Source of the DNA: Cyanidioschyzon merolae
Taxonomy: Eukaryota
Length of the DNA stretch: 64,000 bases
Direction: 5' to 3' (one strand)
Assembly (NCBI GenBank): GCA_000091205.1
Contig: AP006488.2
Made by a program: the position numbers and the translations under genes. Position 1 is the stretch's first letter. Each line of letters starts with the position of its first letter. This document shows positions 4,629 through 59,612 of this stretch, piece after piece. Below the pieces are notes generated by a model. The model saw only the letters and a list, made by a program, of their open reading frames with translations. It was not told the DNA's origin and did not search any database.

Positions 4629-6404
4629 CATCTAACCTTTCGATTCGAAGATCATTCGGGTAATGCTGCGGCGGCGAACTCCCGGCATCATACCATTTTG
4701 TTAGGGATGCGACTGCTTGGTGCATACACTACTCTGTTTGAAAACGGAAAACAAGCTGTTGCCGAGTAAGGTCGCTGACGGACCATGACAAGGACGCCTT
4801 TGCATATCTGGGTATTTGTGACCCGTAAATTCTATGATTCGCCCTCTGTATATTCCGGAAAACTGAACAGTTGAACGCTCTCCTGGTTCACCATTTGTGC
4901 TGGAAAAATGCTCCCGGTTCATTCAAGCGACGTTATAAACTTTCCGGCCAGCTGACCGGCACCATAGCAATGCCGAGCTTCGTGCGAGACTCCAGTCTCC
5001 TGGCGACTTTTGTTTCCTACGGAAATGCCGAGGATTTCCGCACAAAACCCACTCGGAATACGAAACGTTGCCGCGGAGGTTTCGCTCCCTGCAAAGCCGC
5101 TGGGCGCTCTATGGGCACGAGACATTGCCGGATGTTGATCGAGGAGTAAAGGTGTCAGAGCGGAAACTGCTTGCAAGCATTTAACCTGGTGGAATCATTC
5201 TGTGGCAAACCCCTCACCTTGGATTGCCTCGGAATTTGATGTATCGCTCGGTTTACTGGACCGCTGTCTTGGTTCAGGATCCCCATGTTTATTCTTCTAC
5301 CCACGCGCTTCTTTGTTTTATCCAGGTTCCTCTTACTTGCCCAGCGATTCAAACCTCTGACGTCCCCAGAGCGAATCATATGCGGAGACGAAGTACGAGC
5401 GGCGAGGATGAAAACACGGAGCAGATAACGAGTTTGTGGATTGTGCTCAAGGAGAATGATGACATGACGTGCCGCTGTGTGTCACTTGCGCATCTGAGAA
5501 GTTCTCCACTTTTCCAGTGTCCTCGACACACTGGAAGGACACTAACCTGAGAGTGAGCAGAGCACATTGCCGCGGCCGAGTGCGATGCCATGCATAATCC
5601 TCTACGAGCGCTCTGTGTTCCGGCAACAGCAATGACACTCCGGGGTACTCCTTAACGACCCTAGTGCCTGAGTTTAGCGATGCGCGCAGCTTCTCGTCTG
5701 AGAAGACACCCAAGCGATGAGCTCCGTCCAGCAATGCTTTTCGTCCGAGAGTAGTAACGTTCTCTGGGAACGCTATACATCCTGCGTGCGGAACGCTCCA
5801 GGATATCTGTGAAGCTCTCACACCGCTGCTTCTTCGGCGTAATTGGTATGCACGGACACTGCATTTCCGTTGTGAACCATGTAATTCATATTTATTCTTC
5901 ATACATTTTTGACCTCTCTTCTCTATCGCTCTTCGGAAAATGCGATCTGCAAACCTGACCAAGTGTTGCAAACAAAGCGTTGAGCCCTGCAGCCCCGGTC
6001 GTTGAGCCCAAAGCATCGAGCACCAATCCACGTCGGGGACGGTACGCGTTATCGAATATGTATTTGCTGAACTGAGCCCTTGCTTCACGGCCTCGATGAC
6101 CCTATCAATAGGGTCTTAACCACAGAGAGCAATTTGTGGTGTCTAAGATAACCCATCCTCCGATCTCTGCTGTTTTCCAAAAAAGAGGATATGTGGAACA
6201 CGATGTTGTCCACCGTGCGACAAGCACCGAAACCAAATCCAGACTGGAGAACACGTTGGACCATTTCGATTGGTCTGCATTCCCATCGTGCAAAGCGATG
6301 ACACAATCTCCTCTGGGAAGCGATCGCTGCAACGACTGTAGTCTGAATCCATTGCCCATTTCCATGCAAGAACAAGAGCCGGGCGTCTCTGAAAGCATAT
6401 CCAC

Positions 6405-6610
6405 TTATTGATATCGAGCTGCAGTCGAATGGCGTTCCGTCGATGTCTACAAAGAGAAAAGAAGTCGGCTTTCGAACAGATTGAATTTTCTGACGTTCCA
6501 AGTTTCAGAAGCTTTCTGCATGAGCCTGTGAACATGTCGTCCATTCTCGACGCCAATGGTTTTTCTTCGTTATTCCAGCAGCATGCATTGCTGCGCCCAG
6601 CGGATGTCTT
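6405..6610 (+). repeat. Copy 2 of the short low-copy repeat (second family)
   Basis: Homologous to 250-480 (see that entry). Same orientation, 6.1 kb apart, flanking the DnaJ-like and SWEET genes. Confidence 0.55.
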
Positions 6611-7741
6611 AAGACACACCGATCAGAGACCTGAGGCATGCGTTATCTGAGCATGCTATACGGACGGAGCAGAGAAGCGTTGAGTCTCGTTCCAAAAACT
6701 TGGATAATGAAATCAAGTATTTTGCGAATCCTGAGTTCGAGGGCGTTGCGAATCATTCTGATACCGTTGACAAGACGCATTCCAGCGAGCGGCGTCGAAG
6801 GAGCCACTCCGAAACCCCGACCGAGAATACTCAAACTATTTATGCATTCGAAAGCCCGTATGGCTGCACTGCGAAGGCTGCAAGCGTAACTCTAAAAAAG
6901 CGCGAGCGACATATCGGAATGCACGATCAGAAGAACCAGTTTTGTTTTCCACGTTCATCTGATCGCTGTAGCATGGTGCAGACGGGTGCAGGCCTAGCGC
7001 ACCATCGACGGGATATCCTTGACGCTATGCTATGGGTGCCACTCGGGTACAACGCCTACGTTTCAAGCGAATCATTAAGAATCGCTCTTATTGGAAGCGC
7101 GTCCCCCATAAACGCATCGCTCGGCGCTGAATCGCAGATGAGCAGTCTGCGTACTAGCGAACGCAGGCTTTCTCGTGAAACTCATTGGTCAGCACTCACC
7201 TGCGGTTCAAAAAAGAACGGCGCAGCGCCGACACCGCAATCAAGTGCGCTTGACTCGTGCAGGAATAAACCACTTGGACCCTGCTATCGGTTGTATAAAG
7301 CGTGAAAGCTCGTATAGACGTCTTGCTCCCCGGCGTTGTTCAGAACAGCACGCTGCGCTGCTGGGCGCTTCCCTGGAACACGTGTCGACGCAGCCGAGGA
7401 GCGCCATCCTTGCTCTACGAAACATATTGACCAGCAGCGAAAATTGCGTGCCATGGCATACACTTGAAACTGCATTTCGCTCTATCGAAACTGCAGACAA
7501 ACCCTAGATAAGCCCGCTACCTATGCCTCGAGTCCAGCCTCTGAGCCAACGCCAAGGCCAACCACTGGGGTTATCCGTAAAGCGCCGCCCCGCCCCGCGC
7601 TGCACCGCACCCGCTTCAACGTTCGAACGTTCGACTGTTGCCGCTGTAGAGTTGCACTTGTTAGGGACACACTTGAGCACTTGCCTACGGTCGGAACGAA
7701 TTTGCAACGGCTGTCAGAGGCCGACACACGCTGTGAAAGGC

Positions 7742-9943
7742 ATGCCAGGGGCGTCTGGTCCCAAACGGGATGCAGCGGATCGCGTGCAAGACGGCGACTT
7801 TGTTATTCTGCAGTACGGAGAAGGTCGCTATGAGAAACATCGCAAGATCCTGCAAGTTCGGAAGACTACAGCGACTTTGCAAGACGTGCATGACGCTGCA
7901 GGCACTGCTGCTGCTGCGGACACACTGATCAGAGTTGGTACCAGGTACGTGCACCCAAGTGCACTGATCGGCGTTCCGTGGGGCGTGCGTCTCTCTTACC
8001 CGGATCCAGCTGAACAAGCGGTATCGCCTGCACCGCAGGCAACAGACAAACAGATGTTACTCGCTTTGCGAACTGATGCCGATGCCGTTGCAACAGATGG
8101 GCAGGACGTGGACGCGGAGGCACCTGAACAACGAAGCAACCCTAGCGCGACAGCGTGCGCTACGACCGAAAAGCCTCCAACGCTTACCCAGGTCGTTCCT
8201 GGTACCAGTCAGGAAAGTTTCACGTCCCAGTTTCGTGGCACCAATCATCAAACTCGAGCCACAGCGGAAACGGTTTCAGAACGCGTATCCGCTGCACAGT
8301 CCAAACGCTTGGAGCGAAAACATCAGCGGCACGGATTCTCCTTGCGCGTCATCCGTCCTAGTTTATGCACACTTACAGACACCCTTTACCAGAAAATGGA
8401 AGGCAAATCATTGTGGATGCATGCCGAAGCGCTTGGGTTTGTTCTTCTGCAGGCCGGCGTCTGGGCGGGTACCAAACGCGTGTTGATCCTCGAGGAGCTC
8501 GCAGAACGAACAGGTCTTGTAACCGCGGCGTGCACCCAACGGATGCGCTATCCTGGACGAGTTCCAAATCCTGCAGAGGGTATTCTGGTCATCACAGCTG
8601 CAGGAGTTGGCATGAAGACCAGTCATGGTGCTGCACTGCGGATACTTGGCTTACGTCGATCGAAACGAGCTGAGCACAGCGCATCCACTGATCCGTTACG
8701 AGGTGATGCGGAGAACGCATCGAGACAATCGTATTCAAATTCCACTTCAGAAGATCGCCTGGAAGCAGCTGGTCTACCGCTGATTCAGCATCTGCCCTTG
8801 GAATGGTTACAGAAGACGCCAGGGTCATTCGGAGGCCGTCCTCGTGGACATCTCCATGACGCCCGGGCGCCAACCGGGGGCACGGTACCGCCTATGGGTA
8901 CGGACGGTTCGATCGGGGCGGAAAATTCTGGCGATGTGGATGCCCAGCTCCTCGAAGTGAACGATCATCTGCAACATCATGCTGTCAAGAGATCGCCGGA
9001 AGGACCAGAGGAACGCGAGGAGCGTCCCGAATCATCTAAAACGATGGATGTACTGGAATCCTCTGTGCAGAGGTGGCTCGACAATGCCGATCGGGGAAAT
9101 GAGGCAATCATTATTGCCTTCAAAGAGCAGGTCCCTGGTGGAGCAGGCGATCTGGTTCAGCTCATGGCACTGCTTCTTCCATTACTATCGCCTGGTTATC
9201 CCTTTGTCATCTGGAGTCCATGGCTACAGCCTCTGGCGGAACTGCAAGCGTTTATGAGCATTTCAGATGATTCTCGCAGCGAGTCAGCGCCAGTTTCCAT
9301 CGATGCACCTGGGAATCTAGCCAGTTCAGCTCGAAAACTGGATACGAGCACGTGGCAAGGGGTCGGTATCGAAGCGATCGACGATGCGAAACTCGATCAG
9401 TGGAAGCGAAGCAGACGGCAGCCGTTTGTAAACCGACCGGAACGCGAGCGCATGGTGACGACACCGGACAGCATCGCGGTTGCAGAGATACCTCGGAAAC
9501 CTCCAGGGATTCCAGAGGGATCCACTCGCCCCGCACACGCTCCAGACGAATCGTCTGTGAACCGAGCAGTCATGTCAGCGGCAGAGCATCCTGCAGATAC
9601 GGAGTCGCTTATTCCGGCGGCAGAGCGAATAGCGCAGCGTGAATCCCCTTCAACACAGTCTCTATCGATGGACGCTGTGGCAGATTCGCGTCAGGCTCAT
9701 GTCAAGGATCCAAATCCGGTGCCTGTGGGTCACGTTGGGCAGGTTTTCCAAGACGATCACGCGGGTACGACCGATGACGCAACTGGAGACGTGGACCTGC
9801 GTGTGTTACAGCAGGTCGCGCACGTTCGTTTGACGGAAATCACGACGTTTGGGCACCAGTTTGCAGCCGAAAGAACGCACCCCTGGATGTCGCAGACACC
9901 ACCCAGCGGATTCGTGCTGTCCGGGTTCCGAATCCAGCCATGA
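7742..9943 (+). CDS. TRM6/GCD10-like protein (non-catalytic subunit of tRNA m1A58 methyltransferase) with large low-complexity insertions
   Basis: N-terminal block RVQDGDFVILQYGEG...IRVGTRYVHPSALIGVPWGVRLSY resembles the Gcd10/Gcd14 N-terminal barrel. Mid block GTKRVLILEELAERTGLVTAACTQRM and C-terminal block GGAGDLVQLMALLLPLLSPGYPFVIWSPWLQPLAELQAFM resemble TRM6 regions. Start set at the in-frame ATG at 7742 (MPGASG) rather than the ORF-track start 7523. Assignment is tentative. Confidence 0.4.
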   Translation: MPGASGPKRDAADRVQDGDFVILQYGEGRYEKHRKILQVRKTTATLQDVHDAAGTAAAADTLIRVGTRYVHPSALIGVPWGVRLSYPDPAEQAVSPAPQATDKQMLLALRTDADAVATDGQDVDAEAPEQRSNPSATACATTEKPPTLTQVVPGTSQESFTSQFRGTNHQTRATAETVSERVSAAQSKRLERKHQRHGFSLRVIRPSLCTLTDTLYQKMEGKSLWMHAEALGFVLLQAGVWAGTKRVLILEELAERTGLVTAACTQRMRYPGRVPNPAEGILVITAAGVGMKTSHGAALRILGLRRSKRAEHSASTDPLRGDAENASRQSYSNSTSEDRLEAAGLPLIQHLPLEWLQKTPGSFGGRPRGHLHDARAPTGGTVPPMGTDGSIGAENSGDVDAQLLEVNDHLQHHAVKRSPEGPEEREERPESSKTMDVLESSVQRWLDNADRGNEAIIIAFKEQVPGGAGDLVQLMALLLPLLSPGYPFVIWSPWLQPLAELQAFMSISDDSRSESAPVSIDAPGNLASSARKLDTSTWQGVGIEAIDDAKLDQWKRSRRQPFVNRPERERMVTTPDSIAVAEIPRKPPGIPEGSTRPAHAPDESSVNRAVMSAAEHPADTESLIPAAERIAQRESPSTQSLSMDAVADSRQAHVKDPNPVPVGHVGQVFQDDHAGTTDDATGDVDLRVLQQVAHVRLTEITTFGHQFAAERTHPWMSQTPPSGFVLSGFRIQP

Positions 9944-11118: not shown

Positions 11119-12021
11119 CTAGCGCCGGGCAGCCATTTGCATCCGGAACGCAAGCACCTGTTGCCGTTGATCCGGAGGCAGCGCTTGAATCTGCGCTGGG
11201 GTCAGCGACATTAACTGTTGAATCAGAGCCTCTTCAGTCGCAGCGCCTTGACCCGGAACGATGCCTCCAGGCAGCGGTGCAGCAGCGCCGGCTGCAGCAC
11301 CAGACTGCACCCTCTGCATCGCCGCCAGGCTCGCATTCGTAGTCACCGATGCCGTCATACTCTGCAGATATTGCTGTGCCTGTTGAGCGCTGAGCAGGCC
11401 CAGTAAAACCTGGGCTTGGAGAATCGCATGCGCTATCGGTGGATGCGCAGCCAACATCGCGCGTACTTCATTGGGATTCTGCTGGGCGATCGTCTTCAGT
11501 TCAGCGAGCACATCGAAGATCTGCTGGAGACTGAGACCCTGCAGAGATGGCTGTCCGCTTGGGAGCAAAAACGGTTGAACTACCTGTGCAGCCGTCACTG
11601 TCGGTCCAGTCGGCTGTGACGGTGCGGTAGCGTCCGCAAGAGCGTCGTAAGCGCCCCAGGATGCTGCTGAAGCTCCAGGACCCAGCCCAGGGCCCGATCG
11701 TCCGCCCTCGGGCGCTGCTCCTGCCCCCGGTGCAGTGGACCCGCCAGCACTTGCCTGATTCCGAGTCTGCGAACTCGGGGCGATCCGCAGCATTCGTCCT
11801 CCGAACTCTATGCGCTCATTGAGGTTCCGTACAGCACTCTCAGCTGTCTCAGGGTCGCGGTACTCACAGAAACCGTAGCCCTTCGGTTTGCCGGTCTCTT
11901 TGTCGTAAAGGATGCGTAGACTCACCACCGGACCTACTTGCTGCAAGCGTTCTAGCAGCATATCCTCCGTGACTCCATAGGGTATGTTTCCGATAAACAC
12001 AGTGCAGGAACCGCGACTCAT
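11119..12021 (-). CDS. Cleavage stimulation factor 64 kDa subunit (CstF-64/CSTF2-like; Rna15 family)
   Basis: RRM: CTVFIGNIPYGVTEDMLLERLQQVGPVVSLRILYDKETGKPKGYGFCEYRDPETAESAVRNLN. Hinge: PNEVRAMLAAHPPIAHAILQAQVLLGL. C-terminal domain: LTPAQIQALPPDQRQQVLAFRMQ. Start at the MSRGSC ATG (12021); the ORF is open upstream to 12303. Confidence 0.75.
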   Translation of the reverse strand: MSRGSCTVFIGNIPYGVTEDMLLERLQQVGPVVSLRILYDKETGKPKGYGFCEYRDPETAESAVRNLNERIEFGGRMLRIAPSSQTRNQASAGGSTAPGAGAAPEGGRSGPGLGPGASAASWGAYDALADATAPSQPTGPTVTAAQVVQPFLLPSGQPSLQGLSLQQIFDVLAELKTIAQQNPNEVRAMLAAHPPIAHAILQAQVLLGLLSAQQAQQYLQSMTASVTTNASLAAMQRVQSGAAAGAAAPLPGGIVPGQGAATEEALIQQLMSLTPAQIQALPPDQRQQVLAFRMQMAARR

Positions 12022-12240: not shown

Positions 12241-12262
12241 GGCAGGCAGGCAGGCAGGCAGC
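12241..12262. repeat. (GGCA)n microsatellite
   Basis: ggcaggcaggcaggcaggcagc just upstream of the CstF-64 start region. Confidence 0.85.
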
Positions 12263-12562
12263 CAGGCAGCAGGATAGGAAAACGTCAGTCGTTTCCGCGA
12301 CAATTGCGAATGCTGTACGAGCCTGCGAGCGCTTCCTGCTTAGCGGTGTCAGCAGGGCGAAGGCCCGTTGACGGAAATTCTTCTCGACTGTTTAGCAGAA
12401 GACCGAGACGCTGGTCTAAAAGCACAGTATGTTTGTGTGCTCCGTTCAAGAAACACGAGGAAGCGGCAGAGAACTTTTCACCAGCTTCGTTGCTGGCGTC
12501 AGTTCCTGTGTGATCAGGAAAACGAACGACGTTTCACGACCACAGTGTAACTGTGTATATGT

Positions 12563-13950
12563 CCAATCACAGACGCCTCCCAGCCTTTTTTGATCGGTTG
12601 CATGCTATCGATTTCTCCTTCTCCTTATACACTTTGACCTTGAGAGGCGGCCCGACGACGTTGGATCGCGTCAGCTCCCCTGGTCTCGTCTTCAGAACTG
12701 CACATCTCCTAATATTGACAGCGGCACTGAAGTCTCCGTTCACGAACTCCATGCGTTAATCGCCGTTGGTGGAACTCGTTTTTTTCGAGCATTCCTGGGA
12801 CTCGTGCCTTCTGACCCATTTCCGGGTCTGTCAGCTCTCCGTGCTTTCGCATCGCCGAGGCGCTCCGCTCCTGTTCCTCCATCTCGATCTTCTAAAGCGT
12901 GCACCGCTGCCCATCTTTTGGACTCTTCATTTCTTCTAATGAACGCACTTGTTCGTATGCTTCGGTGAGGAACTTCCCAGATCGGAAAGGACTTGCACAA
13001 GAACGACGACATGTGCCCCGGTGTCAACGTGTGGTGAGCGCTTCAGCGACTCGCCCAGTGGAGCGAACACTGCGTTTCACGATACAAAACCCTCCCTCGA
13101 TGTGGATCAGCCACGGAGCGTACGCAGGAATCCAGAGCAGCTCTACTCCCAAAAGAAGAATTGGCAAAAGCCCGAACGCAAAGTGAAATGTCTTGAATGA
13201 TTCGACGAAATGGTTGGTGTTGATGGATAAGCCTTCTCTAGGAGCGAAACCGAGGTCGCCAAATGAAGCCACTGCAGCTAGAACAGATGACGATGTCGTC
13301 GTTCTCTTCGAGACTGATCGTCAATGCAACGGGCTCCCTGCTCCGCGAGTACCCATAGACACTCTGGGCGCTTCGTCCGAAGAAAGCCTCATCAACTGAA
13401 AAACAAACCAACCGATATTCCTGTGCTTTACACAGATCGTGACTTTCCAGGAACGCTGCAGTCGTTGGGAGTTCGGCGGAAGATGGCCGAGCGTGAACTA
13501 GGACTTTATTGCGACTGTGTCCCAGTGTTTTCAGGACCGCACGAGCCGGCTGTTGAGAATGAGTGTCGCCCCTGGTGGCTGTTATCATCGCTTCTGCCGT
13601 CCGCAAGTAGATCAAGGGGTCGTTTTCTACCAGTAACCGGCAGCAATTTTTGAGAACGTTGGTTATTTGCATAGAGCGCATATCCTGCTTTTTTCAGTGT
13701 TCCTCAGCCATCTGAGAACTCTGGTACGACTGGCGTTGAGGAGGAATGCAATCTTCCAAGCACGGCTCAGTAAAGAACATATCCTAAAGGAGATTCTTCT
13801 ATGATCTTTATGGTGCGTTGAAACGTGATGCTTATCCCGAGCTCTACACAGCGAAGAAGCATTCCATTCCATGGCTCGGCAGGGGAAACAGAATTGAGTT
13901 GAAAGACTGGAAACAGTACTGGCGCGAAAAAACTGGCCATTTCAATCGAT
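12563..13950 (-). repeat. Copy A of the ~1.4-kb noncoding dispersed repeat family (element reads on minus strand); left arm of inverted repeat
   Basis: About 98-99% identical to copy B over about 1.2 kb with no indels (A position x pairs with B position 31580-x; checked at four ORF pairs). 3' terminus ccaatcacagacgcc is the reverse complement of ...ggcgtctgtgattgg. Inner (5') end diverges from B beyond about 13750, but the shared 5' landmark gtctttcaactcaa is present in reverse complement at about 13891-13907. Confidence 0.85.
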
Positions 13951-14199
13951 GTCCCACGGCGGGCTAGAACTGAGCAAACAAGCTATTATCCTCGTATTCA
14001 AGCCTGGCTTTTACGTGTTGGGTGCCCCGTTATCCGGAGCAAAGTGTTGCGTACTTCTTTAGCTGCGGATAACCGGCGTGCACCAAGGGATCTTCGGTTA
14101 GCTTCAACGAACCCAAACTAGCGAAAAAATCAGCACGAGGTTTGCTCATTGCGTTGCCATTCAACGAAGAGCTGCGCACTTTGATAAAAGCACTGTTAA

Positions 14200-15198
14200 A
14201 TGCTTGATCATCAACCATGGATTGAGAAATACAGACCACGGACGCTCTCTGAAGTCGTCGGCAACCAACCAGTTGTCGAACGACTGCGAGCACTGGCTCT
14301 TAGCGGGAACGTGCCGCACTTGCTGCTCGTTGGTCCACCGGGCGTCGGCAAGACGACCGTAGCGCTTGCTTTGGCGCGGGATACTCTGGGCGATGCGCTC
14401 ATCCAGCAAGCAGTTTTAGAATTGAACGCATCAGATGAACGAGGTATTGACGTGGTGCGAAACAAGATCAAAATGTTTTGCCAACAGCACGTGACCTTGC
14501 CGCCGGGACGACATAAGCTCATCATTCTCGACGAAGCGGACTCGATGACGCCCGCAGCACAGCAAGCTCTACGCCGTATCATGGAACTCTACTCAAGTAC
14601 CACACGATTCGCGCTTGCCGCAAACGTCTCCAGCAAAATCATCGAACCAATACAGAGTCGTTGTGCTGTCATTCGGTTTCGTCGTCTTGGCGATGAAGCG
14701 GTGCGCAGTCGCCTTGTCAGCGTTCTGGAAGAAGAGCACGTTCCGTACGAGCCGGACGGAATCGAGACCATTGTCTTCACGGCCGATGGTGATATGAGGC
14801 AGGCCCTGAACAACGCCCAAGCGACGTGGTTTGGTTTCGGAGTCATTACAACGGAGCATGTGCTGCGTGTATGTGACTCACCGTCGCCAGCACGGCTGCG
14901 TCGATTTCTCGAATTATGTGAGACACAGAAATTTGAGCAAGCAGTTGGCGAGATTGAGGCGATCTGGCGTAGTGGGTACGCAGCGTCGGACCTAGTTGCC
15001 ACGCTGTTTCGGGTGGCTCGAACTCAGGCCATGATCACCGAAGGTGGAGAGCGTGGGCGAGACCTGCGGCTCGAGTTCCTGCGTGAGATCGGTCTAACGC
15101 ATATGCGGATCACGGACGGCTTATCAAGTCTGCTGCAACTCACTGCATTGGCATCGAAGCTGGTCCGTTGTGCTGAACGTATCCACACAGCCCAATAA
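14200..15198 (+). CDS. RFC2: Replication factor C small subunit (human RFC2 / yeast Rfc4-like AAA+ clamp loader subunit)
   Basis: Walker A GPPGVGKTT, DEAD-like ILDEADSMT, SRC motif IIEPIQSRCAVIRF, and C-terminal DGDMRQALNNAQATWFGFG. Full-length 332-aa single ORF. Confidence 0.85.
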   Translation: MLDHQPWIEKYRPRTLSEVVGNQPVVERLRALALSGNVPHLLLVGPPGVGKTTVALALARDTLGDALIQQAVLELNASDERGIDVVRNKIKMFCQQHVTLPPGRHKLIILDEADSMTPAAQQALRRIMELYSSTTRFALAANVSSKIIEPIQSRCAVIRFRRLGDEAVRSRLVSVLEEEHVPYEPDGIETIVFTADGDMRQALNNAQATWFGFGVITTEHVLRVCDSPSPARLRRFLELCETQKFEQAVGEIEAIWRSGYAASDLVATLFRVARTQAMITEGGERGRDLRLEFLREIGLTHMRITDGLSSLLQLTALASKLVRCAERIHTAQ

Positions 15199-16167
15199 GT
15201 TGGAACTGAGCGTGTGCGTTGGTCTCCGAACCAGGGCGAGAACTTGCTTCGGCGGTTGCAACATGCTCTGCGGGACTGGGCTCTAGCGAAACAAGCGGGT
15301 GCGTTCCAGTGGGAAGATGTTATTCAAGCCTGGTCCAGCATGGCTGCCGCACCACAACTAGCAACTTTGTATCTGTTTTGATTTATCCGTGTTCGTGTGT
15401 GGATCGCTCAGTGAAGCAGCATGGGCGTTCTGCCGGCATATCCAGCGTGATGTTGGGGGCGCTGCTATCTTTGGGTGACGATTTCACCATGCGCGTTAGA
15501 ACACGAGCTGGGTATTCGAATGCAGTCTGGTACAGGAGTCGAGCTCGGGCGTATGCATGACCTTCAGTCGACACATGCTTTTGAGCTTTATCGAAGGCAT
15601 GGTTCAGCTGCAAAGGCGACACGGGGCAGAATGTATTTGCGTTCGTGAGGCATACCCACCCGCGGGCTCGATGGCGTCGATGCTCGGGAGAAGCATCCGC
15701 CTCACGTACGTCCCGATTTGGCGCCCTGCAGTCGTCAAGAACTCATGGGTAGCTCGAGTGCCAGGGAGAAGCATCCGCCTTGGGAGGAAACGCTTCGAAG
15801 ACCCTTGAATCGTCAGAAAATGGCTGGTAGCTCGACATAGACAGCGGCTTCTTGCGTACATGGCCTTTCTACATTCGTCGCTGTGCAGAGTATCGGAAGC
15901 TTCAGGCTTCAGCGCGTCACACCATGCGACTAGACGCCGCCTCAACCCAATCATCTAAATACCAGTGCGCTTTGTGGATGCGACAGCGCCAAATAACATA
16001 TCCATACACAACGACTGCGCGCGCTCGCATCAGTGCAGCCTTGCACGGTCAGTGCGAACCTGACGCTGTATGCCCCATTGCCTCTACAGAGGCGCTCATC
16101 GAGGCTCTCTGAGCTCATTCACCAGGATGCACCATCTTTCGGATCATATGCGAAAAATTGAGCCGAA

Positions 16168-16881
16168 TCAGGTAAAACCTGCAGTGGCACCTCGCCCACG
16201 TAGCTTGAAAAACCACAAGAGTACCGCAATGATGACCAAAATCACCATCATAGGCCCGTACTGTCGAATCCGTAGCATCCAACGAGCATGTTTCGCTCGA
16301 CGGAGGTACTTGCGCGACTCTGCTGATAGCATGGCGCTGGTATTCTGCAGTGATTCGAGACGTTCGCCCCGTCCAAGCACTTCCTGAATACTCCTCGTCA
16401 TGATGTCGCGCACATCCAAAAGCTCTGAGTTGAGGCGTTCCAGGTTTCGGACAGCACTGGCGTCCAAGTACACTTTCTTCGTCTTTTGGATGAAGCTGTC
16501 GAAGCGAATCATCTCATAGGGTCGGTTCGCCAGTGCCACCTGGGCTCCATAAACTGCTTCAAACTCCCGTCGAAGTTCGTCGAGAAACGCGAACGCCAAC
16601 TTTCGCGGATAAGCTTTTTCGCTCAGCGTCAAGAAAGCCACCTGGTCACCAAGCAAATAGTGAAACGTGAAGGCGCCCGATTCGATGCTGGCGGCTTTCC
16701 GAGAAGCCGGAACGCTGCCGCGTCCGCCAGCCAAGTACTCGGCAGTGAGACCCTTGAGGATCCGTTTCGCCTGTCGCTCGTACTCTTGAAGCTCTAGCGC
16801 GAACGCGTCCTTTTCGTCGGCCAGGGAAGCTGCGAGCGGCAGTCCATCCGTCAATCGCGAGATGAACGTTATCTTTGGCAT
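16168..16881 (-). CDS. SEC22: SEC22-type R-SNARE (longin domain, SNARE motif, C-terminal TM)
   Basis: [20 protein letters not shown] (longin N-terminus as in Sec22b [20 protein letters not shown]), FTFHYLL...[33 protein letters not shown], SNARE heptads, then hydrophobic tail [15 protein letters not shown]. Start moved to the internal ATG at 16881. Confidence 0.75.
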   Translation of the reverse strand: [237 protein letters not shown]

Positions 16882-17649
16882 CAAAACCTGTTGCGAAGCG
16901 TCACTAGATGTGGTTGTTCGGAGAGCGGGCCACAGCGATGCCAACGATACATCGGAAAGTGCTGGATTGCCCAGCGGACCCTAGTGCGATGCCTAGCGCT
17001 GCGGCTGACTCTGAACCGAGTACCGTTCGCGAATGGAAGCGATGAGCCTAAGTCTTCGGTCGCTACGGAACGAGTTCTGGAATCTTACACAGTTCTCGCA
17101 AGATTTCGTGTCACAGGATGGAATACAGAGCGGAAGCACACATGGAACGCGCTCTCAGGGACTGGGGCGTAGTGTCTGCGTCACCAGCCTCGATTCTCGA
17201 ACACTACATCGGTAACGTCTCTAGTCTCAATAAAGAGGATCGTCCGGTACAGGCTGCGCTTTATTACGGTCTTTGTGCCTCGTTCGCATGCATATTCGGG
17301 GACAATACGGAGGCTGAGTAGAAGACATGCCTGTTTCGATCGAAGGGAGATCGCGACGTAGGTATTCTCGCGATGGTGACAAGCATCCCTGGCCAGCTTT
17401 TACCTGTGTCATGGTGAAAATCGAGGCAAGCAAACGATTCGCAACGAGTACGCAATATGCAAGTGTAGCAACGCTGCATAGAACAGGGCATGCAAAGAGG
17501 TTGCATCTCATGGCGAGAAGCTTGGCGGTGAAGCGCGCATTCCAATGCACTCGAGAAGCGAGTTTTCCCAGTACACGTATTTCAAGATCATAGCGTTACG
17601 GTCTTTTGAGTTTCAAAGCTTTGAATATGGTTGGGAAGCAGACCTGAGG

Positions 17650-19017
17650 ATGAGTAGCGCTGCAGAGGTAACGCGATACCGGCCTTTGTTAACGTCTTTC
17701 AACTCAAATTTTGTTCGGCCCCGGTTTGGTGAATAGCAGGAGATCGAAATGACCAAGCAATGTACCCTATAGATCGAGGACGAATTGCCCGTACGGTATA
17801 CAATCTTTACTGAACAGTGCATGGAAGATTGCATTCCTCCTCAACGCCAGTCGTACCAGAGCTCTCAGATGGCTGAGGAACACTGAAAAAAGCAGGATAT
17901 GCGCTCTATGCAAATAACCAACGTTCTCAAAAATTGCTTCCGGTTACTGGTAGAAAACGACCCCTTGATCTACTTGCGGGCGGCAGAAGCGATGATAACA
18001 GCCACCAGGGGCGACACTCATTCTCAACAGCCGGCTCGTGCGGTCCTGTAAACACTGGGACACAGTCGCAATAAAGTCCTAGTTCACGCTCGGCCATCTT
18101 CCGCCGAACTCCCAACGACTGCAGCGTTCCTGGAGAGTCACGATCTGTGTAAAGCACAGGAATATCGGTTGGTTTGTTTTTCAGTTGATGAGGCTTTCTT
18201 CGGACGAAGCGCTCAGAGTGTCTATGGGTACTTGCGGAGCAGGGAGCCCGTTGCATTGACGATCAGTCTCGAAGAGAACGACGACATCGTCATCTGTTCT
18301 AGCTGCAGTGGATTCACTTGGCGACCTCGGTTTCGCTCCTAGAGAAGGCTTATCCATCAACACCAACCATTTCGTCGAATCATTCAAGACATTTCACTTT
18401 GCGTTCGGGCTTTTGCCTATTCTTTTTTTGGGAGTAGAGCTGCTCTTGATTCCTGCGTACGCTCCGTGGCTGATCCACATCGAGGGAGGGTTTTGTATCG
18501 TGAAACGCAGTGTTCGCTCCACTGGGCGAGTCGCTGAAGCGCTCACCACACGTTGACACCGGGGCACATGTCGTCGTTCTTGTGCAAGTCCTTTCCGATC
18601 TGGGAAGTTCCTCACCGAAGCATACGAACAAGTGCGTTCATTAGAAGAAATGAAGAGTCCAAAAGATGGGCAGCGGTGCACACTTTAGAAGATCGAGATG
18701 GAGGAACAGGAGCGGAGCGCCTCGGCGATGCGAAAGCACGGAGAGCTGACAGACCCGGAAATGGGTCAGAATGCACGAGTCCCAGGAATGCTCGAAAAAA
18801 ACGAGTTCCACCAACGGCGATTAACGCATGGAGATCGTGAGCGGAGACTTCAGTGCCGCTATCAATATCAGGAGATGTGCAGTTCTGAAGACGAGACCAG
18901 AGGAGCTGACGCGATCCAACGTCGTCGGGCCGCCTCTCAAGGTCAAAGTGTATAAGGAGAAGGAGAAATCGATAGCATGCAACCGATCAAAAAAGGCTGG
19001 GAGGCGTCTGTGATTGG
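17650..19017 (+). repeat. Copy B of the ~1.4-kb repeat family (plus orientation); right arm of inverted repeat
   Basis: See copy A. 5' landmark gtctttcaactcaa at 17694. 3' terminus ...aaaaaaggctgggaggcgtctgtgattgg at 19017. Small ORFs inside mirror those in A on the opposite strand. Confidence 0.85.
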
Positions 19018-21765
19018 GTATATAGACTCTCTATGGTCATGAATCGTTTAACTAATCAATGATCGAATATCACGAATGCTTTTGTGTAGTCTATGCTAGT
19101 TTCAGATTATACTGGAACACTGAATCACGCACTCTGTTCCTGCCTTGCGAATGTTTGAGAGCATATTTAAAGATAAAGCCTCGAGATTCGAAGTTGAACA
19201 GAAAGGCTTCGCGGATGCATGCGTGGTAGTAGAATTCCCGGGCGTCTTCTCGGAAAGGCAACTGTCAACTTCTGCCTCTGGAATCCGTTACAGTACCATA
19301 ATCAGGATATTTCGAGGCATTCTCGAACAAGAGTTCTTCAAGTATGCCATGTCATTATCCAGCCCATTCATGCAAGCCCCCAGGCGGCTCCTTTCCTGAC
19401 ATGTTGCATCGCTCAAATGAAGCAGTCTTCAATGTTTCGCTCTTTCTGCTTCAAGGCAGCTCGTGTCCGCAGTGATTCGCATCTCTGGACGGTTACGGAA
19501 AAATCTTGAATTGGTCCCTTGATAACTTATCCGCAAGCTCATGCCAAATATTCTCTGAGCTTCTAACTTCAAAAAACGAATTCCATTCCAAAGATAGTTC
19601 CTGATCTTCTTGTGCGCATCAACGATACAGCGTCGGACTGCACCGAGATCCATTCTCAGGATATACTCTCAAAGCCTCCTGTCTCTTCTGTATGCGTGGA
19701 ATTGGGTCTTGCGCTTGGGCTTTAGTCATCGCAGCGATCATGTGTAGTGGAAATAGCGTCACCGCAGTGAATGCAGGAGGCGCAGAAGTATCAAAAGGTG
19801 CTGGCATTTTCTGCGCCATGGCAGTTTCCGTCCGATACTTGTTCCATCGTGGACAACATCGTTTGCCAAGAATCCTATATACAAATCGGAATACCGTGCC
19901 CACGCATGTGCAGCGGACAGAGAACGTACCAATGGGATCGTCCGATGAATCCTGTGATCTTAGGGTACAGCACGGATTACGGAAACTGAGAAGAGCATGC
20001 GGGAGTGCTTTCCCCATCCGTCATGGATACGTACCTAGCGATGTAACAAGCTTTTGCGCGCGACAAGGCACCTCTCGGAGAACAAGGTAAGGTGGATGTA
20101 TGCTAATAACTCAGTACAATCAAGTGCCACCGGTGCGTAGAACGCACCAAGGATGTATACTAGGACGGGAATCGGCAAGCGGACCTTAGAACGCAACTTG
20201 TTCGAGAGCATGGAACTCGTCGACGAGTGCTGGAAGCTACAAAATGGGGACTCGGACGCTTTTAGCAACATACTTCGACTGCCGAATATGGAGCCGGAGG
20301 AAAATGAGAGACTCGAGCTTTTAACGCCAGAAATAAACGAGCAAACTTGAGATCAATCGCAGAAAACGCACGTAAGGTCCAGTTTTGATGAAAATAGGAA
20401 GAGTCCAAAACTTTAGAGTGCACGCCCGGGTCACTGAACCCGTTCATCTTTCATCCACCCTGGTTGTAGGAATGATTTTATGAACCAGGAGTCCCACAAG
20501 GGTGCTCCTAATCGATACTCAGAGAAGTGCCCTCTACACTGCTCTGCTCCGACGCCCCGGCGCTCCATTTGCCACAGACCGGACTTGTCTTTGGGGCAGG
20601 GGCATGAAAAACCAAGGAGCACCTCGTATGAAGCATTGATCCTCTGGCAGCGACACAGTGAACGATGCAGTCTGCGAGTCGACGTCCGCAGAATTATGCA
20701 TGAAGATGTAGCCGTCTCTAAGTGCGCCCCATCAGAGCCTTGAAGTCTTAAGTCCGTGAGTAAGCGTCCGCAAGGATGTGTCCTAAGTTACTGTGAAATT
20801 TCCGTATAATAGAGCTGTTGTTTTCGGCACTCCAAGAGTCAGGAAATCGATCAGAGCTCTTTTCCTGAGGAGAATGCTGCCGAGCTGGAGCTACTGGGAT
20901 ATAAAGGCGTTTCCGGAGGAGCCAGTACCTCTTGTTCTAATAAACGGCAGCAGTTGCATATCCTGCAGGTTCTCGTTAGATACACCGATGGTGCCTCAAT
21001 TTAAATAGGAATCTGCACCTGCACGCGAAACGCTGTGTTGTCCAGTAGCTCGGCTGCAGCGAGCTTCCTGGGGCGGCACAGGGCAGCTTGTAGACGAGTT
21101 TACACAAATTGCGATGCCGTAGACGCTCGCCTCGTTCGACTCCAGTCCTGACTGCAGGCAGTAACGAGCGCTTGCATCGGTGCCGATAAGAAGCACAGAC
21201 CTTTACGTTTCGACCGCTGATGCATTGTGGATTCGACTCGAGCCAACGACCAACTGAGCAGGCGACGTCTTGAGAAACAAGCAAACGGCACACTGGTCAT
21301 GTAATGAAAAGCAAGTTGCGAGCATTTCTCGTCGGGCTCCGGACGTGGCGAGAGCAGGTCTCAACGCGAAAGCCAACGTCCAAGTGGCGCAGCCGAAGCT
21401 TGGTATTCGACTCTGCTTCATCGAACCAAACTGAGGTATATACTTTTAAAAAAAAAGTAATGTGACTGTCATTGCAACAAACAGTCCCTTTAAGGATCAA
21501 TACAGGTAGCAAAGCCGTAAGGTCAGGCTCCTGCCATCGAATGCCCACCAGAACGATTGTATCGCAAGGTCATCCTTCGCTGCAAAAGGTACAGTGCGCA
21601 GTAGTGGTGCCGCTCTCCTCGTATGCATTTTACCAATAGATTCGTCAGACGCTTATTTCCTGATGTGAACGGCAGGCACGACAACCGCTTAACGGACCTT
21701 GGACGCCGACAGGCACAAAACCTGTTCTCGTAGAGCTCCAAATCTACACAAACATACAAAAGCAT

Positions 21766-22398
21766 TCACACTAGCGCCGGACTTTTCGCTCCGCTTTCGT
21801 TTGTTTTGTTGAGCGTCCCTTGCTTTGTATCGACTAGCTCGATGGTTTCGCGCTCGGTGCCATCGCCATCGTTGCTGATCGAGTGGCTTCGTGAACTCGA
21901 CTGCCGTGTTGCGGCTGCTTTCGCTTCAGCGGTGTACGCCCGTCGCCTCTGGAGTTTGTCCCAGCCAAGCCTTACGCAGTTCACCGCAGAGAAGAAGCAC
22001 CAGATTCCCTCGTAGACAACAAAAGGCCAATAGAAAATCATAGCTGCTGCAGCTGTCGCTAACGCTCCGCCCAGAAAGTTCGCAAATGAATAAAGAATCG
22101 AATCCGGCCAGCGCTCCAGTCGCCATACTCGAAACAGGTTCAACAAGAATGCTAGTAGCATCAGTGCGACGCCTACTGCGCCTATCGCCGTGGAAGCGGG
22201 ACTCTCCGTACTGAACATTTCACTGAAAAGCGAAACATAAAACCTTGAATAGATTCTGAACGCAAACAGAACCAACCCCAAGACTCTTTGCGTTGCAAGG
22301 CGACTTGGAAATCTAGTTTGTATCAAGAAATGAGTCCCAAGGCCAAAGCTTGTAAAGCACGCGGGCAGTGTTCCGCGTTCACGACTCCAAATTTGCAC
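21766..22398 (-). CDS. Hypothetical small membrane protein (several predicted TM helices)
   Basis: ORF with hydrophobic segments LGLVLFAFRIYSRFYVSLF, AIGAVGVALMLLAFLLNLF and FANFLGGALATAAAAMIFYWPFVVY plus a hydrophilic C-terminus. No recognisable family; may be non-coding. Confidence 0.25.
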   Translation of the reverse strand: MQIWSRERGTLPACFTSFGLGTHFLIQTRFPSRLATQRVLGLVLFAFRIYSRFYVSLFSEMFSTESPASTAIGAVGVALMLLAFLLNLFRVWRLERWPDSILYSFANFLGGALATAAAAMIFYWPFVVYEGIWCFFSAVNCVRLGWDKLQRRRAYTAEAKAAATRQSSSRSHSISNDGDGTERETIELVDTKQGTLNKTNESGAKSPALV

Positions 22399-23689
22399 AA
22401 GTGCTTCCCAAATGAGTTGTGCAAGCAGTGTTTCGAAAACTGGATTCTATGCTGATTACGGCGAGTTTGCTTCGCCCAAATTTAGAGTGAGGATACGAGC
22501 TATGCAATGTTCGTCGACGTTAGTCGCTAGCATGCCAACACGTCCCGGACGTATCTCACTCTTCTCAAAGCGTCGAGCGACACGCGTTCTCGGCGGTAGA
22601 ACGGTGTCCGTTGGATCGATCCCGGCGGATGCCGCCGTAGAAGTTCCGCTTTGTACTACACTGTCTCAGGTGCCTCGCGCACTCGTGATGCGAATCCCTG
22701 AACGCTGTCTGCCTTCGACAGGGTATAAGCTACCACGCATGAAGAGGTGGATGGATTTGCAATTCGTGAGTTGTGCGTTGCCATGCATCAAACGATGTAC
22801 GCAGCTATGCATTGCAAGAAGTATGCGCTTTCGTGTGTGAAAACGAAAAAGCAGCCATGTCGTGAAGCGCTCCTGGTAAACAGCTGGTAGTGGGCACTGA
22901 CTGCATATCTCTTGTATGGTGATCTCCGCAATCGACATGTGACGGAAACGGTGTGGAATCTCGCAAAGCATGCGAAACTCGGCAGTATCTGATGGGATGT
23001 CTCTTGCAAGCGGACTCGGGAATTCCTCTGGAAATGATTGACAGTCTTTATTAATGTTAGTCGCGGGTCTTTTGTGAGACACAACATTTCGTTGCACAGG
23101 CGCAGTTGCGACTCGGGCTTTACCCGAATGTTGCAAGAGCCTCACAGGTGATTACAGAGTATTCGATGTTGTTTTGCATGCATGCCATTATGGGCATGAA
23201 AAGCCATTGCTGTCGGTTTCGATGCAGTCGTCGTCAATGACGAGTGTTCATCGGACGCTTGCTCACAGAACAGAGCATCCCTTGCGAATCACACCTGAAA
23301 ACTCGGATAGGTGCACGCGCGATAGGAAACGTGGTATCACTTGTGTGCGCTGGGCTCCGTTTCAATCGATTTGGACAACGCGTATCCTCGCATGAACCTG
23401 CACCCAGAAGAATAGGGCTCTGTTCAAAGAGCTTTCTTTGAGGCCCAAGATCGGCATTCGTCTAGCCCATGAACGAGCTGCATATAGTCTCTCACCTCAG
23501 TTGAGTTCCGCCTCCAGGTGCATACCATCAAGTGCTGTCTCGCGGTACATAGCAGATGTGCTCGATGTGCAGTCGTTTCCACAAATCAAGTATCCGACGT
23601 AAAGTATGGACATGGTAGTCAAGGATCCTGGCGGGCCGTCATCTCCAGGTGTTTGAAAAAACGAAAATTCCCCTTCTCGCCAAACATCG

Positions 23690-24035
23690 AACGAAGAAGA
23701 GCAAGTGGCGAAGAAAAGGAATGAGCAGATAGACCAGAAAAAGTGTTTGCCCGACGGGCTGATGACTGTACTCTAGTGGCACAGAGGGCATGAGTTCTAG
23801 TAATTCGTACCAATGTGCTTTCAGCCAGTGTCAAGAAACGCAAGGTGTTGGTGAAGTGAAACCTCAGCGCCGCCATCAATATCAGAAAATGTGTGGTGCT
23901 GAAGACGAGACACGAAGAGCTGACGCGATCCAACTTCACGGAGCAGCCTCTAATACTCGAAATATACACGGAAAAGCTGAGGCCTATTGCGGGGAGGCGG
24001 TCAACATAAGGCTGCGAAGTGTCTGTGAGTTGGCG
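23690..24035 (+). repeat. Copy C: 3'-terminal fragment (about 350 bp) of the repeat family
   Basis: Shares the conserved block ccgccatcaatatcag...tgaagacgagac...gagctgacgcgatccaac and the terminus gtgtctgtgagttgg, then tatac. Ends about 495 bp upstream of the co-oriented kinase start. Confidence 0.7.
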
Positions 24036-24529
24036 TATACGCATATATACGCTATGGTCGCGAAAAGTTTTCCCTTCATTGTCCCGAACACCAGATATCG
24101 TGAGAACTCATGACAGGCTTTTCCGCAACAGTCCATAGAAACCAGTATTGTAGGTCGTGGTTCCGGGTGCTGTACCTAGTTACCAGCGCAGTACTGAGAC
24201 AAGGCGAATGGCCCGTATCCGATGCTCGCAATTCGCTTCCCCGTGAACACCGTTCGAGAGTTCTTGTCGGGTACACGTTTGCTCTGGTCGTCGAAGGCGC
24301 CGTCGTTGGTATACTGGCTACTGGCTAGCGGAGAAATAGAGCATTCTGGGTACAGGTTGCTTCTGAGGGTACTCGAGGCTTCGAAGCGATAGGGCAGGTG
24401 TCATGCCTGGGTGAGTCAGCTGATCGGCAACCGCGCAGCGCTTCGTGTCATCCACACGGGAACGAAGCGAAATTGCTGCGGTTTCTGCACCCTAGTCGTG
24501 CGATCGCGCTGTTCTACATTCGTGGGTGA

Positions 24530-26641
24530 ATGATAAGATCGCATACGCGACGTATGGAATCAGCTGCTTCGGTGCCTTCGGTTTTCGCTGTTCCGATAGA
24601 GGACGTTCTGGCCGCTGTTCAGGGTACACGCGTTCAGTGCATAGATCCTAGTTTCTTTTCGTGTTGGGGTCGCCAAGAACGAGCACGATCGTATCGAGTC
24701 TGGGTGACAGACGACTTTCTGGAGTTACGCAGTTGCCCGTCGTGGCCAAACCTCTTCTGTCTATTCGATCTTGTCGCTGTGCGTGCTGATACGTGTGCGC
24801 TATCTCTTGAGTTCCAGGTATCGAGTATGCGCCTGGAGCGCAGCAATAGCGGCTCGCTGAATTCCTTTGTCGATGAAACCGTGCCGGCAAGTCGAGGTCA
24901 TACGAATTCTGTTCCCATCGCAAAAGTACGACGACTTGTTCTCGTCTTTGAACAACAGCGGATCATGCATCAGTGGTTGAACGCATTAACCGCATGTGCA
25001 CCCTCGTCATGTCAGTTTATGCTGCATGCGCTACCAGTCCAGGGATCAAGGAGGTCGAGCAATGAGCGGCGTTGGCAGGGAGCACACATTCTCGGATTCC
25101 ACGACGAGCTGGGCCCCATCGATGGACTCCACTGGCGCGGGAAACCCTTGACCAATTATCCTAAACACGGCGCTGACGGGCGTTACGTGTTCTTACGTGT
25201 CCTTGGTCGCGGATCGATGGGGGAAGTCCTACTCGCGATGGACTTGTATTCCCGTCGCTTCTACGCTGTGAAACAAGCTATTCTTCGTTGTAGATTTGAT
25301 GCGCAAACGGGCTCGCTCCGTGATACGAGCGCTTGCTGTGACCACAACAACGAGCGAATGTTGATGGAAATGGAGCTCATGCGAGGTCTCCGACACCCTA
25401 ACCTCGTGGAGTTGATCGATATCCTACCCGCTGAACGTCGAGATGCCTCACAGGCACCATCGGACGCCGGCACTGAAGCGATCGTGAATGGCGACACTGG
25501 CCGCGATTCCGCGCAGCCTCTGCCGCCTTTGTTTCATGGCGCTGGTGACCGTCGCACTTGGCAAAAAACTGATGCGAGCCTGGTGTCGAGCACAGATCCC
25601 AAGTCTTGTAGTGCTTCACCCACAGAGCAAATGAACGGTCAGTCGATGGATTCGGATCTGCCTACTGCGAGTGATTCACTCGTGCTTGCTCGCGAGCGTG
25701 ATCGTTTGCGTTGGATCCGCGATTCGGGGCTGAAGCCTCTAGTATCCGATGGGTCATCGCGAGAGCTGAGTGTACCGCTCCAATTGGTCGTCGAGTTTGT
25801 ACCCGGCTTCCCGGTGCTTCAATCCAACCAACTCGTGATGAATCAGTCTTTATCGGAAGATGTTGCGCTTTTCGTACTCTGGCAGGTTGCGAACGGTCTT
25901 GCTACCTTGCATGCTCGAAACATCGTTCATCGCGACATCAAACCGGATAACCTGCTGCTCCATGTGGACGGCACCATTAAGCTGAACGATTTTGGCACAG
26001 CATGCGTCGCCGATGCACCCGATGTCCAATGTCTGGTCGGGGCACCCGCTTTTGTGGCGCCCGAAATTATTTCCAGAGTGTGCCAGATCTGCGATGAAGA
26101 GGACGACGACGTGAGTACGCACACAGCGAGATCCCTGGTTATCGATCCAATAAGAAATCCCGGAGAGCGCGGCGCTCCCCAGTGCCCTACCAGTGGAGCA
26201 ACCCCGGATTCCGAGATCAGTAAGCGGAGCGACATCTGGTCGTTAGGGGCAACGCTCTATTACCTTTTGTTTGGTCGACCACCATTTCTCGGGGACACCC
26301 TATACGAACTCTGTGAGAACATCATGCATCAGTCGGTATCTTTCGACCGAGAGCTTCACCGAAAATGGAGCAACTCGAGCGGGCGTAGTACGGATCGGGC
26401 ACGACCTGCACCCTGGTATCGCAGGCGCCTGTCGCGTACCCGTTCTAACGCGCTCAGCGAAGCGTGCACTGCGCTTCTCCAGGGCATGCTCACAAAAGAC
26501 CCGCGAATCCGACTTGATATTCACGGTGTGCTTGCTCATGCAGCACTGGATAGGTATAGACACATGACCGTTACCGAAATGGAGTACTTTACAGAACGCC
26601 TGCGCGACCAATCAACCAAATCAGGTGCGTTCCGTCGGTAA
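24530..26641 (+). CDS. Serine/threonine protein kinase (CAMK/AMPK-like catalytic domain with a large activation-segment/N-lobe insertion)
   Basis: GxGxxG: LGRGSMGEV. VAIK-like: YAVKQ. HRDIKPDNLL catalytic loop. DFG: NDFGTA. APE: VAPEII. SDIWSLGATLYYLLFGRPPF. About 130-aa low-complexity insert between subdomains IV and V. Confidence 0.8.
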   Translation: MIRSHTRRMESAASVPSVFAVPIEDVLAAVQGTRVQCIDPSFFSCWGRQERARSYRVWVTDDFLELRSCPSWPNLFCLFDLVAVRADTCALSLEFQVSSMRLERSNSGSLNSFVDETVPASRGHTNSVPIAKVRRLVLVFEQQRIMHQWLNALTACAPSSCQFMLHALPVQGSRRSSNERRWQGAHILGFHDELGPIDGLHWRGKPLTNYPKHGADGRYVFLRVLGRGSMGEVLLAMDLYSRRFYAVKQAILRCRFDAQTGSLRDTSACCDHNNERMLMEMELMRGLRHPNLVELIDILPAERRDASQAPSDAGTEAIVNGDTGRDSAQPLPPLFHGAGDRRTWQKTDASLVSSTDPKSCSASPTEQMNGQSMDSDLPTASDSLVLARERDRLRWIRDSGLKPLVSDGSSRELSVPLQLVVEFVPGFPVLQSNQLVMNQSLSEDVALFVLWQVANGLATLHARNIVHRDIKPDNLLLHVDGTIKLNDFGTACVADAPDVQCLVGAPAFVAPEIISRVCQICDEEDDDVSTHTARSLVIDPIRNPGERGAPQCPTSGATPDSEISKRSDIWSLGATLYYLLFGRPPFLGDTLYELCENIMHQSVSFDRELHRKWSNSSGRSTDRARPAPWYRRRLSRTRSNALSEACTALLQGMLTKDPRIRLDIHGVLAHAALDRYRHMTVTEMEYFTERLRDQSTKSGAFRR

Positions 26642-34455: not shown

Positions 34456-34533
34456 TAGTCATTTAACCTATCGTCGCGAAACTTTTCCGCTCTACTGACT
34501 TGACTTCGTGGCACACACGCGCAGCGTACTAGG

Positions 34534-41945: not shown

Positions 41946-42805
41946 CACGAGTGTCGGGCAACCAAGAAATACCCATATGTTCATGTTTTTCCCAAAAGCT
42001 GTGTGCAGGCAGGAAACGTTACGAGCACTGCGTTTGTCGCAAAACAGCGAACGGCGACACCGAGCCACCCTTCGGTATGCTCTGATCGATCCAGGCTGTG
42101 TCGCCTTCTTCTGCCACGACGATGGGGTCGGAGGTATCTAGAACTAGATATCCGTGAGTTCAGTGTATTCAGCAAAGCTGGGAGCGCACCTGCTTCCCCA
42201 ACCATCATGGGACGCTCATAAGGACACCAGCCACGGCTACAGCACAGGGCCAAGCTACTGGACTACTCTACCAGCAGATGCAGCGGTAGAGCTGACGGAC
42301 TCTGGCGCGCGCTGTCCGGGTGTACACTCATATGCAACACAAAACCCTGGTAGCCACTGGTGGATCCATTAATCGTATCCTTATTCACGACCCCGAGACG
42401 TGTTTGGAGTTCGTGAAACGCAAAAGCCGCTGTATACTGGAGCGATGGACTTCAGGATTTGGCCACCAGCATCAGTGGCGAACCTATGTGGATATGAATT
42501 GCTGTATTCATTCCACATCTTAAAGAGCTTTCTAACCATCGCCGCACACTGGAACAGTGGCTTGGCCGGGAAATACCTCTGCTTTTTCGCCTTTGTGATC
42601 AGTTTGTGGCGGCGGTAGCAGTGGCTGCGAATCCAGCGTCTGAGGCATGTTTGTTCGTGCAGGGTCGCTAGAGCAATCCAGCCTCTACCCCCTATGAGAG
42701 CGCTTCTCTAGGACTAGAGAAAATACCTCATATTCAGGGCGGAGGCGTGGTCTATTTCCGGGTTGTAGGCAAAAGCAGTGGATCCGGAGTAACCCAGCCC
42801 GAGAC

Positions 42806-59515: not shown

Positions 59516-59612
59516 ACAGCGAGGAAAAATAGAATCGTATTGCACAGCGGCAAGGAGGATTCTCAGTCTTAGGCACTGTTTACGCGTGGGGACTCCAACT
59601 TCGGTGTGAAGG

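Follow-up and report, generated by a model that had tools for sequence, protein, structure and literature searches.

Palindromes of primate Y chromosomes undergo arm-to-arm gene conversion, and their arms are large segmental duplications that bear genes. Ectopic gene conversion is also found between dispersed transposon copies, such as the Ty elements of yeast. In humans, the FLNA-EMD region of Xq28 and the int22h repeats of F8 are sites of inversions, which arise by non-allelic homologous recombination between flanking inverted repeats. Cyanidioschyzon merolae, a nearly intron-free red alga, serves as a minimal model eukaryote whose finished genome is called “simple”, and the locus described here lies in 64 kb of its nuclear DNA. 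This whole stretch is called the window in what follows.

The locus is formed by two inverted arms, A and B, which stand on either side of the gene for replication factor C subunit 2 (RFC2) and of a longin gene. Like the Y palindromes, it has inverted arms around a unique spacer, which appear to be kept near-identical by recurrent non-reciprocal exchange and whose identity stops abruptly, but A and B are the interiors of independently inserted, non-coding repeats of 1.4 kb, with diverged element ends on both sides. As in the conversion of Ty elements, an internal tract would move between non-allelic copies while ends and flanks remain unchanged, which gives mosaic elements; the organism and the element are different, and A and B are an inverted pair 4 kb apart that is associated with an inversion. 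As at FLNA-EMD and int22h, inverted repeats that seem to homogenise by conversion lie at both breakpoints of a gene-bearing inverted segment, while the RFC2-longin inversion is seen between species only. The interpretation favoured here, to which a probability of roughly three in four is given, is that A and B are separately inserted, already diverged members of one repeat family, whose interior 1.2 kb was homogenised by gene conversion and whose ends were left untouched. Its mechanism, the concerted evolution of inverted repeats, is textbook knowledge and is new for C. merolae only; in the literature searched, no paper on gene conversion or on the RFC2-longin inversion in this species was found.

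Genes and dispersed repeats of the window

The open reading frame at 14200-15198 (+ strand) encodes a protein that is identical (100%) to RFC2 of C. merolae 10D. On the left of it are a Gcd10p-like gene (7523-9943, +) and a CSTF2-like gene (11122-12021, -), and on the right a longin/synaptobrevin Sec22-like gene recognised by Pfam (16168-16881, -), a CBU_0592-family gene (21766-22218, -) and a protein kinase gene (24530-26641, +). The segment between the two repeat elements (13908-17693), which carries RFC2 (+) and the Sec22-like longin gene (-), is inverted relative to the sister species by tblastn synteny. The spacer between arm A and the CSTF2-like gene contains a short GGCA/CAGG microsatellite-like run (ggcaggcaggcaggcaggcagccaggcagcagg) at 12245-12277, and a tandem repeat with a unit of 67 nt is present at 42805-42981 (about 2.6 copies, 83-93% identical). 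A search of the whole window for RNA genes, with Rfam at the gathering threshold and a tRNA scan, gave zero matches.

Arms A and B belong to an interspersed repeat family of about 1.4 kb, named M1 here, of which blastn and an nhmmer family profile detected seven copies or fragments in the window. Full-length copies are A (12490-13907, -; 13912-12485 by nhmmer), with its 5' end towards RFC2, B (17694-19090, +; 17687-19097 by nhmmer), with its 5' end towards the longin/Sec22-like gene, C (33077-34500, +) and D (50636-52170, +); A and B were found by blastn as well. Copy E (57598-58395, +) is a 5' half truncated at about family position 800, copy F (58388-59553, -) has an internal gap and copy G (23564-24124, +) is a 3' fragment. 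The initial annotation had noticed a 5' landmark in both arms, and both indeed keep it: GTCTTTCAACTCAA is found at 13894-13907 (-) in A and at 17694-17707 (+) in B, and again at 33077 (with one mismatch) and 57605, which makes four matches against 0.03 expected.

Apart from the A/B pair, the M1 copies of the window are 59-74% identical in their bodies and 57-68% in their 5' ends in the family alignment, and stretches of about 115 nt reach 82-86% identity between copies. Copies E and F form a tail-to-tail inverted pair with zero spacer, and their identity is no more than about 67%, which makes homogenisation particular to A and B and no general property of the family. At five of the five M1 5' ends that have a neighbouring gene, the gene is directed away from the element, in a divergent layout with spacers of 60-1400 nt (M1 5' end/gene start: 13907/14200, 17694/16881, 33077/31751, 57605/56212 and 59553/59613). 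This layout hints at insertion into promoter regions, or at the sharing of them.

M1 is treated as non-coding, because six-frame tblastn between copies scored all frames equally, the codon-phase variability between copies had no overall 3-base periodicity, the 255-aa ORF of copy C matched nothing beyond its own orthologue, a 68-aa ORF from the most conserved M1 block had zero homologues, and the minus-strand translations have stop codons common to the copies at conserved positions. A faint 3-base periodicity is seen at 17994-18293 and in the mirror region of A, and its phase fits a minus-strand ORF of 109 aa (17927-18256 in B, 13324-13653 in A), which may be what is left of the “truncated ORF” that has been reported for repeats of C. 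merolae.

A second dispersed repeat, M2, is about 1.3 kb long and 56-62% identical between copies. M2 copies are found on the plus strand at 19093-20420, 26898-28219 and 49257-50571 and on the minus strand at 47560-48353 and 44948-45481, with further matches at 6184-6899, at 29-843 and between 5384-6866 and 46772-48246. The first of these copies comes immediately after M1 copy B, and M2 also stands immediately before M1 copy D; the two families may together make up one larger composite element. Nozaki et al. (2007) described in C. merolae a “novel interspersed repetitive element” present in 253 copies, with a unit that averages 3.2 kb and a truncated ORF weakly similar to wsv486 of WSSV (PMC1955436). 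M1 probably belongs to this C. merolae-specific repeat, since it is likewise dispersed, multi-copy, devoid of an intact ORF and specific to C. merolae, although M1 measures 1.4 kb, and M1 plus M2 at B 2.7 kb, against 3.2 kb for the published unit.

The homogenised tract and the diverged ends of A and B

The single strong inverted repeat reported for the window, 12553-13776/17804-19027, has arms of 1224 nt that are 98% complementary and 4027 nt apart. In a base-level alignment read in sliding windows of 50 columns, identity between A and B is 0.92-1.00 across the arms and drops inward of A 13776/B 17804 to 0.74, 0.64, 0.58 and then about 0.45, so the profile along the pair is far from uniform. 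The limits of the near-identical tract were placed with the help of C. merolae-like strain contigs, which are about 99% identical to the window, come from many metagenomes and were found through exact matches to proteins and to one 31-mer. Arm-specific differences at B 17814, 17816 and 17821 on the inner side are fixed in every related contig, and those at B 19018, 19019 and 19025-19030 on the outer side are fixed in all contigs. The tract therefore covers 17822-19017 in B (+), which corresponds to 13758-12563 in A (-). Over these 1196 nt there are 19 evenly spread differences (98.4% identity), and the longest identical run is 235 nt. The mismatch rates of the tract and of the 5' segment differ with a Fisher p of 1e-25.

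At both tract ends, which adjoin the most conserved motifs of M1 (TCTTTACTGAAC and GGCGTCTGTGA), identity falls to the family level of about 55-70% within a few bases. The initial annotation had put the inner drop near A 13750/B 17830, a position now refined to about A 13758/B 17822, and its figure of about 60% likeness inward of the step agrees with the 60% given by the family alignment. It had also described an identity of about 98-99% from the outer termini inward, and this stands for the arms up to the inner step and fails for the outer termini themselves. The M1 family alignment extends about 60-70 nt past the outer end of the inverted repeat, and these tails are at family-level identity, so a second abrupt boundary exists on the outside (about A 12563/B 19017).

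Repeats of 1.2 kb are hard to assemble, and contigs built from short metagenome reads exit the arms in either direction, which would suit a collapsed or mis-joined repeat in the reference assembly. As an account of the step profile this is almost certainly wrong, since A and B, the diverged ends of each and the same boundaries are all seen in independent environmental assemblies, and since the 10D arms differ at 19 sites and have no identical run above 235 nt. The finished Sanger assembly of the 10D genome (PMC1955436) also counts against it.

Beyond the inner boundary, the diverged 5' segment of A (13759-13907, -) contains the landmark and a block of about 23 nt that is common only to copy F, and its portion next to the tract (13759-13776) is a conserved family motif with three fixed A/B differences. 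The corresponding segment of B (17694-17821, +), which begins with the landmark, is of a short subtype like those of C, D and E. A 5' profile built from copies C, D, E and F only, and run against the window, matches B at 17690-17799 (E = 2.7e-18) and A at 13908-13777 (E = 5.5e-12), in register to the boundary, so the inner segments are diverged element sequence and not unrelated flanking DNA. When A 13779-13907 is compared with B 17694-17801, identity is 69% over aligned bases and 55% with gaps counted, including an indel of about 23 nt, and the similarity has z = 7 against shuffles. The best partner of the A 5' segment is F, with a score of 33.5 against 9.5-16 for B, C, D and E, while the best partners of the B 5' segment are C (36.5) and E (31.5). 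The body of A is B-like and closer to C and E, with 70-74% identity to these two copies and 63-64% to F. The grouping of A is thus incongruent between the 5' flank (with F) and the tract (with B, C and E), with moderate support from six copies, all of them from the 64-kb window. Judged from these alignments, the 5' ends of A and B are different subtypes.

The diverged 3' tails lie beyond the outer boundary, at 12490-12562 (-) in A and 19018-19090 (+) in B. Against shuffles, tail similarity has z = 10 for A-G, 5.2 for B-G, 4.7 for A-C and 4.1 for A-B. The A-B score was reached in none of 500 shuffles, and the likeness of these two tails is only about 65-73%. The difference of subtype, the diverged ends in register with the family and the family-level divergence of these ends support the earlier view that the arms are independent, diverged family members.

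The simplest origin of an inverted repeat of 98% identity would be an inverted duplication of the whole unit, by transposition or as a segment, after which both ends diverged fast or were overwritten. For A and B this is extremely unlikely. Mismatches amount to 1.6% in the interior and to more than 30% at the ends, where the 23-nt indel is added, so a rate of divergence about 20 times higher would be needed at the ends; in addition, the 5' end of A resembles F and not B, and overwriting needs two further independent conversions, one for each end. An inverted duplication from staggered breaks was ruled out, since the block is bordered on either side by homologous element sequence, different in the two arms, and not by unique DNA.

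If the 1.2-kb body were a separate, recently active mobile unit, inserted site-specifically into two old short repeats, it would be clear why both arms have sharp ends at identical family positions and why a third partner is missing nearby. This is very unlikely as well, because all six matches of the 5' profile in the window are attached to a body and solo units are absent, and because bodies (59-74%) and 5' ends (57-68%) of all other copies are similarly diverged. Moreover, the tract ends have neither terminal inverted repeats nor target-site duplications, identity decays stepwise across a conserved motif and not at a clean junction, and haplotypes shared between the arms, which are described below, would be left unexplained. 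In the window, no copy besides A and B exceeds 74% identity, and an exact 31-mer scan of the metagenome contigs for a third near-identical copy matched loci of A context or B context only.

Inversion of the RFC2-longin segment

Two sister taxa were compared, one represented by L007/L008 (contigs of 233-313 kb, RFC2 82% identical to that of the window) and the other by L009 (RFC2 85% identical). Gene order in L008 is MOSC (-), CUE (+), kinase (-), CBU_0592 (+), RFC (+), Longin (-), CSTF2 (+), Gcd10p (-), MtN3 (-) and BSD2 (+). Read in reverse, the window has by tblastn the same order and strand for these ten genes, except for the flipped RFC/Longin block. L009 agrees with L008 for the genes covered, and both sisters have RFC on the plus and Longin on the minus strand. 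Compared with the two sister species, 10D has the RFC2/longin block inverted, with A at one breakpoint and B at the other. The inversion most likely took place by a crossover between the two arms. In the sister species no M1 is detectable in 49 kb of the orthologous region, and the spacers are about 1.4 kb shorter, which is roughly one M1 length. Target-site duplications, own or swapped between copies, were searched for, and no flanking direct repeat of at least 7 nt was found for any copy, so the swap test has no power.

Among the strain contigs, L004, L011, L013 and L015 follow the 10D arrangement. In L001 (4196-11037), L002 (5489-5614) and at the contig ends of L003 and L005, the Longin-side arm is joined to the CSTF2 flank, which is a junction of the ancestral type. 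These four junctions were dropped as evidence of an inversion polymorphism, because a repeat that is collapsed in a short-read assembly graph permits either exit. For further contigs across arm A, a search with the exact CSTF2 protein gave zero records. Contigs found via the CBU_0592-like protein all end inside arm B and are informative on haplotypes, not on arrangement. At the start of L001 (1-165, against window 13403-13695), 129 nt of arm A (13567-13695) are missing and errors are unusually frequent, as they are at the start of L003; the gap and the errors probably reflect poor quality at contig ends and not biology.

C. merolae has long been treated as clonal and genomically static. That the RFC2-Sec22 segment is a naturally flipping inversion in wild C. 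merolae, driven by an inverted repeat of transposon origin that frequent arm-to-arm conversion keeps competent for recombination, is a doubtful proposal. If it were true, the ancestral-type junctions of L001, L002, L003 and L005 would be real, and the segment would be a convenient natural reporter for ectopic and for sexual recombination.

Haplotypes on the two arms and the course of exchange

The arms were also compared between strains, with the main weight on sites within read or k-mer length of arm-specific bases, because short-read assemblies can mis-thread inside a 1.2-kb repeat. In the outer block at B 18913-18986, at a distance of 32-105 nt to the fixed differences of 19018-19030, there are three haplotypes, and each of them occurs beside A-type and beside B-type flanks. 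Haplotype G-A-GAG-A has the A-type flank in 10D and L015 and the B-type flank in 10D, L004 and L020. Haplotype G-A-GAG-G has the A-type flank in L013 and the B-type flank in L010-L012 and L017-L019, and haplotype C-G-CTC-G is beside the A-type flank in L014, L001-L003 and L005 and beside the B-type flank in L016 and L022. At the inner sites B 17829 and 17844, separated by 8-30 nt from the fixed bases of 17814-17821, TA and CG are the pairs seen, and each stands beside both types of inner flank.

The shared sites are 8-105 nt from arm-specific bases and thus within one read or k-mer, so mis-threaded assembly is no explanation for them. A linked haplotype of five bases cannot recur by chance and inversion crossovers leave a sequence with its own outer flank, which argues for repeated transfer from arm to arm. 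The proposal of the initial annotation that concerted evolution between the arms is ongoing is supported by these outer and inner haplotypes on both arm types. When 10D is set against a second strain, represented by L013 (arm A) and L011 (arm B), the result points the same way, with seven sites that are strain-specific on both arms and one that is arm-specific in both strains, a count that is less robust than the boundary haplotypes, as mid-arm sites in short-read contigs are not safely assigned and a collapsed assembly could inflate it. Within the L013/L011 strain the arms differ at 6 sites, while orthologous arms differ between strains at 16-21.

A single break-repair or template-switch event between diverged inverted elements could have produced the inversion and the copying of the body in one step, with no meaningful exchange afterwards. 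The coincidence of the arms with the inversion breakpoints speaks for such an origin, as do the tract boundaries, which are the same in all contigs and hence in every strain examined, and the conserved motifs TCTTTACTGAAC and GGCGTCTGTGA beside the tract ends, which could act as short homologies. As a complete account it is nevertheless unlikely, because three haplotypes at the outer boundary and two at the inner one, each seen on either arm in different strains, require later transfers. It is possible as a special case of gene conversion that concerns the first event only.

If gene conversion between separately inserted elements is taken as the course of events, A and B would have been inserted separately, in inverted orientation, in the two spacers that flank RFC2 and the longin gene. 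Ectopic gene conversion, that is non-reciprocal homologous recombination, would then have replaced the interior 1.2 kb of one element by that of the other and left unconverted the 5' segments of about 130 nt and the 3' tails of about 70 nt. The sharp steps at about A 13758/B 17822 and A 12563/B 19017 would be the limits of the converted region. The near-identical interiors would have kept exchanging sequence; in the most economical history, a crossover within the now identical tract would have given the RFC2-longin inversion, and conversion would have continued after it. Identical arms need non-reciprocal copying, since crossovers merely swap sequence between arms. Conversion probably stops at the same two boundaries because the ends, only 55-70% alike, are too diverged for strand exchange.

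The direction of the first conversion may have been from B to A, since the B 5' end and the shared body resemble C and E and the A 5' end resembles F; this assignment draws on small differences in identity. Other members of the family are 63-74% alike and are a poor substrate for homologous recombination, so conversion would have begun with a rare homeologous event, unless A and B were initially more alike than today's other copies are. GC-biased conversion was considered and rejected: the arms have 51.5-52.0% GC against 47.8-49.9% in the other copies, a difference that has the right direction and is too small.

At the A/B locus, rates of conversion and of inversion could be assayed compactly by PCR with four flank-specific primers. 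Beyond that, A and B are a clear but ordinary example of standard concerted evolution between inverted repeats. For C. merolae itself, the finding suggests that its abundant lineage-specific repeats are not inert, as they appear to take part in ectopic homologous exchange and lie at the breakpoints of at least one change of gene order. This alga is known for efficient homologous gene targeting, and ectopic exchange between M1 copies would fit that property.
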